Below, in pieces: positions 10,467 through 20,547 of a DNA stretch of 60,024 bases; within the stretch, counting starts at the first letter, position 1; each line of letters opens with the position of its first letter. Below the pieces are notes generated by a model. The model was not told the DNA's origin. It saw only the letters and a list, made by a program, of their open reading frames with translations, and searched no databases. Origin of the DNA: Candidatus Omnitrophota bacterium (lineage in GTDB: Bacteria; Omnitrophota; Gorgyraeia; 2-02-FULL-51-18; JAGOUK01); the NCBI GenBank assembly GCA_047639455.1, contig JBLINS010000005.1:1-60024 (forward strand), written 5' to 3'. The position numbers and the translations under genes are program-made.

Positions 10467-11213
10467 ATGAAAAAAACGGTTCAAGTTCTCCTGGGCGGTA
10501 TTTTTTTGATTAGTAGCTCAGCACTCGCTGCAGACGCACATCTCACGGGTCAAGCTTCGACATTAGTCCAAAAATCAGTATCTGCCTATACTCAAATGCA
10601 ATCCTATCAATCTCTCATGCAGAGGGAGTACCCGGGCGAGGGCAAAAAATCCGAAGATATATGGGTTAGGTTCGAAAAGCCATTTGCAATTTTTATGGGT
10701 TGGAAAGCTGGTCCTAAAAAGGGTTTGCAAATTGTATATGCCAGGAATCATTTTGAAGACAAGATATTAGCTCGGCCTAAGGGCTTTTTGTTCACTTTTA
10801 TTCCGATTGTGCATATGGCTAAAACAGATCCGCGCATTGGTAGCGAAGAAGAGCATTCCATTGATACAGCGGGTATTGGCTATATGCTCAATGACTTTGC
10901 CGATGACTTTTCAAAGGCTTTAGCTGAGGGTAATATTGACGAAATTTCTATCAATGATGTAGAAATTGACGGAGAAGTGGCTCGAGAGGTGACGGTTGTC
11001 TTTAATGATGAAAATCGTAAATTCCCTAAAGTTAGCATGGCGTATTCCAAGGATCACAACTTACCCGTTGAAACTATATATTTCACAGCTGAAGGTGAGC
11101 CTTATGAAATATATAGGTATTTAGACTTAAAGCCCAATTCTGATTTGAATGACGACGCCAATAAATCCGCTATCGATCACCGCCTACACAAGTATTTAGT
11201 AGACATCCAATAA
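10467..11213 (+). CDS. exported DUF1571-like (LolA-fold) protein
   Basis: Signal peptide; pattern Y...RE...F.KPF.I...W...H.I..AGIG...LP.....E.Y.Y.DL..N resembles DUF1571. Confidence 0.55.
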   Translation: MKKTVQVLLGGIFLISSSALAADAHLTGQASTLVQKSVSAYTQMQSYQSLMQREYPGEGKKSEDIWVRFEKPFAIFMGWKAGPKKGLQIVYARNHFEDKILARPKGFLFTFIPIVHMAKTDPRIGSEEEHSIDTAGIGYMLNDFADDFSKALAEGNIDEISINDVEIDGEVAREVTVVFNDENRKFPKVSMAYSKDHNLPVETIYFTAEGEPYEIYRYLDLKPNSDLNDDANKSAIDHRLHKYLVDIQ

Positions 11214-11232
11214 ACTGTGACTCCTGTTGTTC

Positions 11233-11460
11233 AGGCTGTGTCATAAGCTATTTTGTGGCGTCATTGCGAGGTACAGTTACGGTCTAGCTTCACCGGCATT
11301 AGGTGTCTCGCATTGAGGCTTGTACCGTCACAGTAACGCGGCAATCTGGGGTTATCTTGGATACCAGGTGTCGAATATAAATAAAATTGATTAGTTGTTA
11401 GTCTTAGATTGCCGCGGCCCAAAAACGGCCTTGCTATGACGGGGCATTATGGCACAGCCT
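11233..11460. mobile_element. MITE-like element with 14-bp terminal inverted repeats enclosing a REP doublet
   Basis: AGGCTGTGTCATAA (11233-46) and TTATGGCACAGCCT (11447-60), one mismatch; inside GTCATTGCGAG...GCGGCAATCT and AGATTGCCGC...GCTATGAC; no ORF. Confidence 0.75.
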
Positions 11461-18320: not shown

Positions 18321-19603
18321 ATAGACGTCGCGTCGTGATTACGGGAATTGGTTCGGTAACACCTATGGGAAATGATGTTCAGTCTACTTGGCAAGGCGTC
18401 TTGGATGGATCTTCAGGCGTAGCACGCATAACACATTTTGATCCTTCTGGTTTCCCCGCCCAAATCGCTGGCGAAGTTAAGAGCTTTGACTTCTCAACAT
18501 GGGTAAAACGCGATCCAATATTAAAACATGCCAAAGCGAATACAAAGTTTGCCTTGGTTGCCTCTGAAGAAGCTATTAAAGATTCCGGGCTTGATTGGGA
18601 GAATTTAGATGCTAAGCGCAAAGGTATATATTTTGCAGCAGGGGACAGTGAAGGATCTGTTGATGTTTTGGGTAAAGCATTTCATAAGGCTTGGCAGGCC
18701 AATGGGAGCTCATTTGATTTAGCTGCCTATTTAGAAGAACGGGCCGGCACAGGTGACGGAGTTGTTGAATGCGAAAAGGAACCCGCGCAAACATTGAGGC
18801 ATATGGTTAAGCATTTTGGCGCAAGAGGGCCTGTTTATAATTGTTTAACAGCCTGTGCGGCGTCGGCTCAGGCTATTGGTGAGGCTGTTGAGCTTATACG
18901 CCATGGTGACGCGGATATTATGTTGAGCGGCGGTTCACACTCTATGATCCACCCCTTTGGCATTGCCGGTTTTTGCTTATTGACCACACTTTCTGTGCTA
19001 AATGATACTCCTGAACAGGCATCCCGCCCCTTTGATGCCACCCGATCAGGCTTTGTGTTATCCGAAGGAGCGGGTGCTGTTATTCTGGAAGAATATGAGC
19101 ATGCTAAAAAGAGGGGTGCTACAATTTATGCTGAATTAGCTGGCTATGGAACAACGGCTGACGCTTATCGTTTGACTGATTCACATCCTGAAGGCATTGG
19201 CGCAAGTGCGGCTTTAGAAATGGCTATTAAAGATTCAGGTGTAGCCTTAACTGATGTTGACTATTTGAATGCGCATGGAACTTCTACAAAGGTGAATGAT
19301 GCCGTTGAAACAATAGCGATTAAAAAAATATTTGGTGAACACGCAAAGGACCTGTGGGTGAGCTCAACAAAGTCTATGACGGGTCACTTAATTGCAGCAG
19401 CAGGTGTTGTGGAATTGATTATATGTTTATTGGCCATGCGTGATGGAGTTGCTCCTCCAACAATAAATTATAAACATAAAGATCCTGATTGTGATTTGGA
19501 CTATATTCCTAATCAATCGCGTCAAAAAGAGATTAATGTTTGCGCATCAAACTCTTTTGGCTTCGGTGGACAAAATATTGTTTTGGTGGTTAAAAAGACA
19601 TGA
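18317..19603 (+). CDS. fabF: beta-ketoacyl-ACP synthase II-type ketosynthase (active)
   Basis: TACAAS, NAHGTST, KSMTGHL, NSFGFGG: Cys-His-His triad intact. Confidence 0.92.
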   Translation: MNRRRVVITGIGSVTPMGNDVQSTWQGVLDGSSGVARITHFDPSGFPAQIAGEVKSFDFSTWVKRDPILKHAKANTKFALVASEEAIKDSGLDWENLDAKRKGIYFAAGDSEGSVDVLGKAFHKAWQANGSSFDLAAYLEERAGTGDGVVECEKEPAQTLRHMVKHFGARGPVYNCLTACAASAQAIGEAVELIRHGDADIMLSGGSHSMIHPFGIAGFCLLTTLSVLNDTPEQASRPFDATRSGFVLSEGAGAVILEEYEHAKKRGATIYAELAGYGTTADAYRLTDSHPEGIGASAALEMAIKDSGVALTDVDYLNAHGTSTKVNDAVETIAIKKIFGEHAKDLWVSSTKSMTGHLIAAAGVVELIICLLAMRDGVAPPTINYKHKDPDCDLDYIPNQSRQKEINVCASNSFGFGGQNIVLVVKKT

Positions 19604-20547
19604 GCTTAATTGTAATCATCCCTATAGGTATATTCGCAATTTTTGCATTGATAATCTTTATGGTTTTTTTGCGGTATATTCCATTGATTGAGAGAAACGC
19701 ATTTGATGTGCCAAGATTCCAAGTCCCTGATCAACCTAAGAATTCAGAGGGCCTTAAGATTCGTAATATACAAATACCCTATGACACACGTTGTGCGATT
19801 GAAGCCAAGTATATCAAATCAAGAAAACCTTCTAAAAAACTAGTCGTTTTTTGCCATGAAACCGGAGCTGATTTGGACAGTTGGCAAAAACATGCACACT
19901 TCCTCCCAGATGATGAGGTGGATGTGTTAACATTTAATTTTAAGCTGCTTTCTTTGCGGCCCAAATCTGAGTCTGTTGACGAAAAATACTTTCAATGGCC
20001 TACAGTTAGGGATTTGAGATGTTTAGAACGAGTATTGAGTTGGGTGGCTGTAGAAAAGAAAGATTACGAAGTTGCGCTTTTTGGAGTATCTAAGGGCGCA
20101 ACTGTGGCAGCAGCTGCAGCGCCTTCCCCAATCATAAAGTCAGTTCTTTTGGACGGTGCTTTTTCTACACATATGACGATGCAAAAATACATGAAAAAGT
20201 TTGTGAATATTTATGTTTCGCCGCGATCGTATGTGGCCATAATACCCGATTGGATATATTTGATTTTGTCTTATATGACATTAGCTTATGCGAGTATAAA
20301 AAATAGATTACGTTTTTTTTCTATGGAGAATTTTATCCCCAAATTACGTAAACCCGTGTTCATGATTCATGCAGGTAAGGATTATCATGTTCAATTGGAT
20401 CATGTTCAAAGATTGATGAGCATTATTCCTGGAAGCACGGATTTGTGGGTAGCTGAAAAAGCCGGACACTCTGAAACGGTTTTAAAATATCCCCAAGAAT
20501 ATAATCAACGCATAACTTCATTTTTAAAGAAAACTTTGAACGATTAA
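19600..20547 (+). CDS. membrane-anchored alpha/beta hydrolase (putative thioesterase/acyltransferase)
   Basis: N-terminal TM; GVSKG nucleophile elbow, HAGKD, AGH; overlaps KS stop. Confidence 0.85.
   Translation: MSLIVIIPIGIFAIFALIIFMVFLRYIPLIERNAFDVPRFQVPDQPKNSEGLKIRNIQIPYDTRCAIEAKYIKSRKPSKKLVVFCHETGADLDSWQKHAHFLPDDEVDVLTFNFKLLSLRPKSESVDEKYFQWPTVRDLRCLERVLSWVAVEKKDYEVALFGVSKGATVAAAAAPSPIIKSVLLDGAFSTHMTMQKYMKKFVNIYVSPRSYVAIIPDWIYLILSYMTLAYASIKNRLRFFSMENFIPKLRKPVFMIHAGKDYHVQLDHVQRLMSIIPGSTDLWVAEKAGHSETVLKYPQEYNQRITSFLKKTLND

Follow-up and report, generated by a model that had tools for sequence, protein, structure and literature searches.

An accessory fatty acid synthase-like gene cluster in a Candidatus Omnitrophota genome, a candidate pathway to a glycosylated envelope lipid

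What is made by a fatty acid synthase (FAS)-like gene cluster that combines two ketosynthases (KSs), one of them catalytically dead, with a glycosyltransferase, an adenylate-forming ligase and a membrane-anchored hydrolase is the question raised by a 60,024-nucleotide stretch of DNA from a Candidatus Omnitrophota bacterium (assembly GCA_047639455.1, contig JBLINS010000005.1, positions 1 to 60,024), hereafter termed the window. The window is contig C5 of a 2.28-Mb genome (G000) in 121 contigs, 90.7% complete with 0.9% contamination, and the closest relatives of its proteins are encoded in metagenome-assembled genomes (MAGs) labelled Omnitrophota or Omnitrophica. Genes were called from a listing of open reading frames (ORFs) together with Pfam and NCBIfam scans of the window proteins, which revealed a cluster of ten genes at 11511-20547, all on the plus strand. 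The reading developed below, to which we give about an even chance, is that the cluster is a dedicated line for a mostly saturated acyl chain feeding an uncharacterised envelope glyco(amino)lipid. The ten genes encode the following proteins, in which ACP denotes acyl carrier protein:

11511..12677, plus strand: polytopic family 2 glycosyltransferase (GT2) of the lipid-acceptor kind (HpnB/CruG-like); PF00535, 97.8 bits
12656..14002, plus strand: PaaK-family adenylate-forming ligase; PaaK model, 141 bits; probable start ATG 12677, overlapping the GT2 stop
14110..14874, plus strand: FabL-type short-chain dehydrogenase/reductase (SDR), predicted enoyl-ACP reductase; FabL model NF005975, 250.2 bits against a cut-off of 328
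14874..15356, plus strand: DH1, FabZ-like dehydratase; catalytic His and Glu kept
15695..16084, plus strand: insert-bearing ACP of 129 residues; four-helix canonical core plus a subdomain at about 65-111
16121..16483, plus strand: AcpS-type phosphopantetheinyl transferase; Pfam/NCBIfam match
16541..17035, plus strand: DH2, FabZ-like subunit; catalytic His replaced by Asn, Glu kept
17013..18320, plus strand: KSb, dead FabF-derived KS (chain-length-factor-like partner); Cys replaced by Asp, both His lost; probable start ATG 17028
18317..19603, plus strand: KSa, active FabF-type KS; Cys-His-His intact; fabF model, 484 bits against a cut-off of 494
19600..20547, plus strand: membrane-anchored alpha/beta hydrolase; N-terminal transmembrane helix, Ser-Asp-His present

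A preliminary description of this locus had listed the same ten genes, from GT2 to hydrolase on one strand, and all were recovered in their places; position 10467, which it gave as the beginning of the run, belongs to an exported DUF1571 gene (10467-11213), and the GT2 begins at 11511. The translational coupling that it proposed is borne out at the GT2/ligase, SDR/DH1, DH2/KSb, KSb/KSa and KSa/hydrolase boundaries, where the genes overlap by 1-22 nt or are separated by less than 60 nt. The cluster is interrupted by non-coding gaps at 11214-11510 and 15357-15694, and thus probably comprises two units.

The genome holds a second, housekeeping set of FAS genes. In this set fabH-fabD-fabG-acpP-fabF and a probable fabI lie together on contig C8, where fabG is represented by a FabG-like gene, and fabZ lies on contig C2, which marks the cluster, by its gene content, as an accessory FAS-like system beside the housekeeping FAS. 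Pfam scans of 10467-24145 revealed no fabD, fabH or fabG, plsX not being among the genes searched for. Thus, the proposal that this is not the primary FAS operon holds, as a separate primary set was found and the fabF, acp and fabZ genes of the cluster are not the only ones in the genome. The two systems probably share one activating enzyme, since the AcpS of the cluster, as the only PF01648 match and the sole phosphopantetheinyl transferase detected in the genome (90.7% complete), would also have to activate the housekeeping ACP. Among five relatives checked, the AcpS-type enzyme is again the sole match in two (G340, G076), while a second copy is present in three (G210, G017, G034).

The distribution of the cluster was traced through KSb. 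Of 400 other Omnitrophota genomes sampled, 82 contain an orthologue (E ≤ 1e-50): the single genome of the window's own family (1/1), all 11 genomes of the sister family f2, none of the 225 genomes of families f3-f30 and 70 of the 163 genomes of the other 44 families. Twenty-five Omnitrophota loci were compared, 20 chosen among the 82 positives, for the most part on long contigs, and five from a separate search for relatives; some gene absences at these loci reflect contig ends. DH2, KSb and KSa are present at 25 loci each, the ACP at 23, DH1 at 22 and AcpS at 14. The companions of these genes are GT2 (19 loci), a FabL-like SDR (16), a thioester reductase (16) and a methyltransferase (15), and the remainder comprises a HAD protein (7), hydrolase (6), ligase (6), a class-III aminotransferase (6), DUF1571 (4) and a ketoreductase (KR) within the cassette (3). 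Gene order is conserved over the 25 Omnitrophota and 23 Planctomycetota loci. By these locus comparisons, the conserved core consists of DH1, the insert-bearing ACP, AcpS, DH2, the dead KS and the active FabF-type KS, and the FabL-type reductase and polytopic GT2 are its commonest companions in Omnitrophota. Two styles of tailoring are found around the core. In f60-type loci the order is methyltransferase, cassette, thioester reductase, GT2, and in loci from the taxonomic order of the window the cassette is followed by HAD phosphatase, aminotransferase and ligase, while GT2 and a pair of hydrolase and DUF1571 genes lie close by. Among 400 other Planctomycetota genomes sampled, 62 also encode the insert-bearing ACP, some of them on multi-megabase single contigs. 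At 16 Planctomycetota loci DH1, ACP and DH2 always occur together, accompanied by a KR at 8, at least one KS at 8 and a KS pair at 2; a FabL-like gene was seen at none of these 16.

The pairing of a dead KS with an active KS, noted previously for the window, extends to all 26 orthologous pairs. KSa retains Cys-His-His in 26/26 pairs, while the catalytic Cys of KSb is absent in 26/26, being replaced by Asp, Ser, Gly or Ala, and the first His is usually gone too. A quick maximum-likelihood tree was built from 63 KS sequences, without 10 of the 26 orthologue pairs (8 f60-type and 2 of family f2) and without KSs from anammox or aryl-polyene systems. In this tree KSa groups with the Planctomycetota cassette KSs in one clade (Shimodaira-Hasegawa-like approximate likelihood-ratio test (SH-aLRT) support of 97), separate from canonical FabF, to which the FabF of this genome belongs. 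KSb forms a clade of its own (SH-aLRT 85) with a branching that mirrors that of KSa. Membership in the aromatic type II polyketide synthases (PKSs) was rejected: the chain-length factor of those systems carries Gln at the position of the KS cysteine, in contrast with the Asp, Ser, Gly or Ala of KSb, and Pfam scans of the cluster revealed no cyclase domains. A third KS locus, more degenerate than the others, lies on contig C52 (C52:7818-13136, locus L131) and encodes a FadL-type outer-membrane protein, then a degenerate KS that consists of the N-terminal domain only and sits on a very long branch, followed by an ACP, an intact KS and a FabH-like enzyme. Histidine-kinase and response-regulator genes are next after the locus.

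The dehydratase-like proteins also differ in their catalytic residues. The His of DH1 is kept in 23/23 aligned orthologues, whereas DH2 has lost it both in the family to which the window belongs and in the f60 clade, with the Glu of DH2 kept in 26/26 orthologues. Each FabZ active site combines a His from one subunit with a Glu from its partner, and the residue pattern of DH1 and DH2 therefore fits a heterodimer with one working site. Prediction of the DH1-DH2 complex gave a median score of 0.94 over three runs, against 0.00 for the best of three controls; this mark is reached by 58 of 80 solved complexes and by 2 of 110 mismatched pairs. The models share at least 84% of their contacts, with a partner predicted local distance difference test score (pLDDT) of at least 83, and the predicted interface takes in the His38 region of DH1 and Glu54 of DH2. 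DH1 and DH2 are thus predicted to pair as a heterodimer, although, because FabZ dimers are solved, the score may reflect mere likeness to them.

The SDR has as its best Protein Data Bank (PDB) match the B. subtilis FabL (3OIC, E 3e-52), with which its Y-x6-K spacing, as opposed to Tyr-x3-Lys, is aligned. Over the 400 Omnitrophota genomes FabL and KSb occur together in 70, KSb alone in 12, FabL alone in 2 and neither in 316, counts in which related genomes are not independent observations. The presence of an enoyl reductase in the cluster, claimed at the outset, thus agrees both with the best structural match and with co-occurrence in 70 of the 82 KSb genomes, and by homology the FabL-type SDR is the predicted enoyl reductase component of the cassette. 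The accompanying statement that no KR is present is correct for the window and fails for its relatives, a FabG-like KR lying in the cassette of 3/25 Omnitrophota and 8/16 Planctomycetota loci. In three of the loci compared (L111, L124, L126) a KR occupies the place of the window's 338-bp gap (15357-15694), where a tblastn search for a decayed KR gene at E ≤ 10 gave nothing.

The ACP is indeed enlarged, as first described, but the additional part is an internal insert of about 45 residues and not a tail. Alignment places the insert between helix II/III and the last helix, and an AlphaFold model built from 46 sequences (pLDDT of 89.2) displays the canonical core with a small subdomain spanning approximately residues 65-111. 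A Foldseek search with this model returned ordinary ACPs, aligned across the insert, as the top matches, rather than AcpXL-type proteins. Among the best 120 sequence matches nearly all are 127-136 residues long (one has 143) with at least 53% identity; the family comprises 558 representatives at E ≤ 1e-10, and most of the best 150 align over nearly the whole query. The modelled insert may constitute a new means of shielding or metering long chains, or of docking the heterodimeric KS and dehydratase. The f60-type ACPs (L114-L118, L120, L123) display a Cys-rich tail, with 3-4 cysteines in the last ten residues, that the window ACP lacks.

Of the remaining cluster proteins, the GT2 is polytopic and the hydrolase membrane-anchored. 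The GT2 scores 184.6 bits with the HpnB model (cut-off 379) and 146 with the CruG model (cut-off 600). A GT2 orthologue is present at 19/25 related Omnitrophota loci, at one of them with only 22% identity, in agreement with the suggestion that GT2 accompanies the KS pair in relatives; the same suggestion made for the ligase (6/25) does not stand. A hopanoid link of this HpnB-like enzyme was rejected, since no squalene-hopene cyclase was found in the 90.7%-complete genome. On contig C69 (C69:3869-6750) a phytoene/squalene synthase gene adjoins a GT2 28% identical to that of the cluster. This is probably a carotenoid-type glycoside locus, and as the paralogue sits there, the cluster GT2 is not the carotenoid-linked copy. 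The hydrolase is a candidate thioesterase or acyltransferase, its Ser, Asp and His being kept in 15/15 homologues. Of 401 Planctomycetota genomes, 15 have a homologue of the hydrolase; each of these 15 also carries the special ACP, and in 9 of them the two genes lie within 4 kb.

The role of the ligase is where the readings of the cluster diverge. In one alternative, which follows the logic of aryl polyenes and flexirubins, the ligase loads an unusual aromatic or short acid on the ACP, the KS and chain-length factor extend it to a partly saturated polyketide-like chain, and the hydrolase and GT2 release and glycosylate it. The ligase has PaaK (4R1L, 131 bits) as its best PDB match, and it aligns near full length with both the PaaK model (141 bits) and the model of the flexirubin ligase FlxY, although the latter score (109.3 bits) is far below the cut-off of 520. 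Its gene overlaps that of the GT2, such that the two look co-translated; the absence of FabH from the cluster means that a priming step is needed, and a LolA-like protein and a resistance-nodulation-division (RND) pump lie nearby, as in aryl-polyene clusters. Aryl-polyene and flexirubin clusters combine a KS and a dead KS, two dehydratases, an ACP, an adenylating ligase, a GT2, a LolA-like protein and an exporter, gene content that the present cluster shares, including a large exporter nearby. However, aryl polyenes are built with a KR and dehydratases but without an enoyl reductase, whereas the window contains a FabL-type reductase and no KR, and the link of this reductase to the cassette speaks against a polyene product. 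The ligase itself lies outside the conserved core, being absent from 19/25 Omnitrophota and all 23 Planctomycetota loci examined, and its orthologues, found at 6/25 loci that all come from the window's own taxonomic order, are accompanied in 6/6 by a class-III aminotransferase and a HAD phosphatase. Moreover, a loader is not required, because the anammox KS/dead-KS pair compared below is reported to prime itself by malonyl-ACP decarboxylation. In Planctomycetota a GH3-family amide synthetase directly follows the hydrolase in four loci (L005, L168, L184, L185) and is itself followed by methyltransferases in L168 and L185. Given this arrangement and the constant company of aminotransferase and phosphatase, the ligase is more likely a tailoring enzyme that attaches a head group than a starter loader. 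Loading of an unusual starter is thus considered unlikely, and neither the core role originally given to the ligase nor the aryl-polyene analogy is upheld.

The acyl-chain line proposed at the outset would operate as follows. KSa and KSb would form a heterodimer of the KS/chain-length-factor kind, which may also start chains by malonyl-ACP decarboxylation, as in the anammox pair, while FabD, and in this genome FabG, would be borrowed from the housekeeping set. Dehydration would take place in the DH1/DH2 heterodimer at one composite active site, with His from DH1 and Glu from DH2. FabL would reduce in every round and so yield a mostly saturated chain, of set and probably unusual length, on the special ACP. 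The membrane-anchored Ser-Asp-His hydrolase would remove the chain from the ACP by hydrolysis or O-acyl transfer, and the PaaK-type ligase would activate the acid and join it to a head group, most likely an amine supplied by the aminotransferase and phosphatase. The GT2 would attach a sugar, and the exported LolA-like DUF1571 protein would ferry the lipid towards the outer membrane. Relative to the pathway to an unknown glycosylated acyl lipid that had been suggested, this scheme retains an accessory FAS-like lipid cluster that ends in glycosylation, and the role given to the ligase and the aryl-polyene and anammox parallels are probably wrong.

Several observations weigh against such a line. 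FabL is the only sign that the chain is saturated. Thioester reductase and methyltransferase genes take the place of hydrolase and ligase at 16/25 Omnitrophota loci, and most Planctomycetota loci are bare cassettes with no enoyl reductase, GT2, ligase or hydrolase, which suggests that tailoring is lineage-specific and that the chain may serve different ends in each lineage. In the window's own genome the aminotransferase orthologue lies on contig C19 and the phosphatase 11 kb from the cluster. The hydrolase has the alpha/beta fold and the Ser-Asp-His triad but matches no NCBIfam family, and its kinship with OlsI, the alpha/beta hydrolase of an ornithine-lipid pathway, is putative. The GH3 protein of L168 reaches only 103 bits with the model of OlsH (NF052613, cut-off 620), the GH3 enzyme of that pathway, so that the analogy with ornithine lipids is one of function and not of membership. 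Finally, as the AcpS in the cluster is the genome's only detected phosphopantetheinyl transferase, its place in the cluster does not establish that this line has an activating enzyme of its own.

A broader proposal is put forward more tentatively, at somewhat less than an even chance. It holds that the cassette leads to a novel envelope lipid of the Planctomycetota-Verrucomicrobiota-Chlamydiota (PVC) group, in which a saturated chain of unusual length would carry an amide- or ester-linked small head group and be glycosylated, and that this lipid would be a major, possibly indispensable, component in Omnitrophota and many Planctomycetota.

The genes and sites flanking the cluster, or lying in its gaps, that were considered in relation to the pathway are as follows:

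10467..11213, plus strand: DUF1571 protein with signal peptide and LolA/MucB-RseB-like fold; PF07608, 61.3 bits
11477..11504, plus strand: sigma-70-like promoter match, TTGAAA-16-TATAAT, 11/12, the best of the region; 7 nt before the GT2 start
15507..15534, plus strand: promoter-like site, 10/12, inside the 338-bp gap preceding the ACP gene
20564..24145, plus strand: NirA-like sulfite/nitrite reductase, VanZ-like protein and outer-membrane efflux protein (OEP), packed against the hydrolase gene; pathway membership uncertain
24410..27520, plus strand: AcrB-type RND transporter, possible exporter; membership uncertain; a 65%-identical orthologue adjoins the cassette in L002
31510..32187, plus strand: HAD phosphatase, 37% identical to the L124 HAD protein and homologous to the one between KSa and aminotransferase in relatives

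DUF1571 has one match only in the genome. Its neighbours in a structural atlas are DUF1571, MucB_RseB and LolA clusters, with template-modelling scores of 0.69-0.77, and its gene lies directly by the hydrolase gene in L111, L124 and L130, two copies being found near the cassette in L168; the protein is a candidate periplasmic lipid carrier on its modelled fold. In the window, two adjacent SPFH/Band-7 genes precede the DUF1571 gene, separated from it by an 11-nt gap (8521-11213), and this tight run raises the possibility of co-expression of the LolA-like protein with scaffold proteins of membrane microdomains. The aminotransferase orthologue on C19 (C19:18780-22460, locus L191 6778-10458) lies in a run with phosphomannose-isomerase-like and RmlD-like reductase genes; the latter two were dropped as pathway members, being near the cassette in no relative examined. 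Downstream, the tight same-strand run continues beyond 20547, through the genes for the NirA-like reductase, VanZ-like protein and OEP, to 24145, with the OEP gene overlapping VanZ and VanZ overlapping the NirA-like reductase gene. Among relatives, however, a NirA-like reductase follows the hydrolase only in L001, and OEP and RND genes follow it only in L002. Between the neighbouring OEP and AcrB-type RND genes (22688-27520) there is no ORF of at least 100 residues for a periplasmic adaptor. A further same-strand run after the pump (28231-32187) encodes a DedA/VTT protein, a short GT2, a GH1 glycosidase, a DUF2064 protein and the HAD phosphatase, and may represent a further glycoconjugate module.

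The two gaps of the cluster hold the two highest-scoring promoter-like matches on the plus strand of the region. The region as a whole holds 37 such matches against 39.6 in shuffled sequences, thus no excess, and the site at 11477..11504 is for this reason a lead only. Rfam gave no match at E ≤ 0.1 in 10000-24500. The first gap also contains a strongly self-complementary element at 11214-11475 (262 nt, -105.6 kcal/mol, z of -6.5, with 0/200 shuffles as stable). Partial copies of this element account for 66 BLAST matches (75-97% identity over about 25-170 nt, the first 60 inspected) on some 45 contigs, and by sequence it looks like a repeat family of the miniature inverted-repeat transposable element (MITE) or repetitive extragenic palindromic (REP) kind.

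Comparison with known systems reveals likeness in parts to several of them. Mycobacterial FAS-II combines AcpM, HadAB/HadBC and InhA with KasA and KasB, which are homodimers. It resembles the present cluster as an elongating FAS that has an enlarged ACP, an enoyl reductase of its own and a heterodimeric dehydratase in which one subunit is non-catalytic, but sequence kinship does not extend beyond superfamilies, AcpM scoring 24-33 bits against the cluster ACP.

A match in gene order is offered by the rhizobial acpXL-fabZXL-fabF2XL-fabF1XL-adhA2XL-lpxXL cluster, which provides the 27-hydroxy-C28 acyl chain of lipid A (PMC11901934). FabF2XL above cut-off marks such loci in 11/251 alphaproteobacterial genomes, in the order acpXL-fabZXL-fabF2XL-fabF1XL, and in five alphaproteobacterial loci the succession of special ACP, FabZ, dead KS and active KS is that of the window; like the present cluster, the system is an accessory line next to a primary FAS. 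This raises a second alternative, that the cassette elongates ordinary chains to very long ones, which the hydrolase moves to lipid A or another envelope glycoconjugate served by GT2 and ligase. BLAST pairs AcpXL with the cluster ACP (35-37% identity), FabF2XL with KSb only and FabF1XL with KSa, while FabZXL scores DH2 above DH1 in 3 of the 4 loci giving a match. Both FabF2XL and KSb lack the Cys and first His, and AcpXL, like the cluster ACP, is extended after helix II, the insert of the latter being longer; the AcpXL-type "specialized ACP" 2KW2 is the second-best PDB match of the cluster ACP, although Foldseek did not rank AcpXL-type ACPs at the top. In the KS tree FabF1XL is the sister of the KSa clade (SH-aLRT 86), whereas FabF2XL takes a long branch of unresolved position. 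Against this alternative, all three AcpXL-system NCBIfam equivalog models score below cut-off (ACP, NF005079, 55.6 against 83; KSb, NF005084, 90.9 against 320; KSa, NF005076, 332.7 against 629), and canonical FabF outscores the XL proteins for both KSa and KSb. LpxXL and AdhA2XL are absent from the cluster, and no LpxXL-type lipid A acyltransferase turned up in Pfam scans of 7620-33461. The cluster further adds a second dehydratase, AcpS, FabL, GT2, a PaaK-like ligase and an alpha/beta hydrolase, and the phyla differ. Gene order agrees with the AcpXL cluster while the three equivalog scores and LpxXL do not, and the cluster was not assigned to it; an AcpXL-like function appears quite improbable.

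A housekeeping side branch, for instance an anaerobic route to unsaturated or 3-hydroxy acids with extra FabZ and FabF paralogues and unrelated GT2, ligase and hydrolase genes, would suit the many Planctomycetota that carry only DH1, in some cases a KR, ACP, DH2 and in some cases a KS in unrelated neighbourhoods, as well as the position of the genome's only detected AcpS inside the operon, but is very unlikely, as a structurally distinct, dedicated ACP family and a dead KS partner are unnecessary for it, GT2, FabL, thioester reductase or hydrolase recur by the cassette across distant families, and Planctomycetota hydrolase homologues occur only in ACP-bearing genomes.

Returning to the dedicated acyl-chain line, a further parallel is provided by anammox Cluster I (KustE3603-3608), which is described as comprising amxACP, amxFabZ, amxFabFmut, amxFabF2, a phytoene-dehydrogenase-like enzyme and a B12 radical SAM protein (bioRxiv 10.64898/2026.05.19.726425, PMC10139942). 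As in the window, a dedicated ACP and FabZ are followed by a dead KS immediately upstream of an active KS, and the heterodimer of the two KSs, which decarboxylates malonyl-ACP, is reported there as shown experimentally (bioRxiv 10.64898/2026.05.19.726425). The best solved match of DH2 is amxFabZ (8AYD), at 42.7 bits; once the amxFabZ entries listed in the same paper are set aside, the highest score is 37.8. KSb and KSa score 147 and 382 bits with canonical FabF, against 105 and 294 with the chains of 9S5H, putatively the anammox pair. Membership in Cluster I was rejected, since the KS order agrees but the B12 radical SAM and phytoene-dehydrogenase-like enzymes were not found among the cluster genes. 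This agrees with the earlier remark that radical SAM, desaturase and cyclase genes are lacking, none having been identified in Pfam scans of the cluster genes. In contrast, the phenylacetate-CoA ligase earlier ascribed to the anammox clusters was not found, the word "phenylacetate" having 0 occurrences in the main text of PMC2649909. An adjacent KS pair of the Cluster I type was absent from the 9 large PKS-rich genomes in the class of the "Brocadiia"-labelled MAG G402.

For head-group attachment, a functional parallel is found in Singulisphaera acidiphila, in which the GH3 enzyme OlsH produces N-acyl-ornithine with ATP and OlsI, an alpha/beta hydrolase, then attaches a further acyl chain, the second (PMC12493201). 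The OlsH/OlsG/OlsI pathway and the present cassettes both combine an adenylate-forming enzyme with an alpha/beta hydrolase, with methyltransferases in the Planctomycetota loci L168 and L185; OlsH belongs to GH3, whereas the adenylating enzyme of the window is of the PaaK type. The terms "acyl carrier protein", "ketoacyl" and "dehydratase" have 0 occurrences in the main text of that paper.

Genome surveys have reported antiSMASH "ladderane" clusters in Omnitrophota and Planctomycetes, together with a clade of unexplored KS and chain-length-factor pairs from the same phyla, with no product (PMC9902471, PMC10132072, PMC7472256). The expectation that no characterised cluster has the same content was supported by literature searches covering main texts, and queries on DUF1571, on Planctomycetes ACP, FabZ and very long chains, and on Omnitrophota fatty acids and ACP returned nothing on the cassette within the same scope. 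These searches surfaced no account of Omnitrophota lipids, and most Planctomycetota lipids are poorly known; yet the cassette is common, with KSb in about one-fifth of the sampled Omnitrophota genomes and the special ACP in about one-sixth of the sampled Planctomycetota. Multi-megabase first contigs that carry it look like complete Planctomycetota genomes, possibly of cultured strains, and if so the product could be found. Rhizobial AcpXL, anammox Cluster I and the present cassette share an ACP, a dehydratase, a dead KS and an active KS, and comparison of the three systems helps to ask how dead KS partners set chain length in fatty-acid-type systems.

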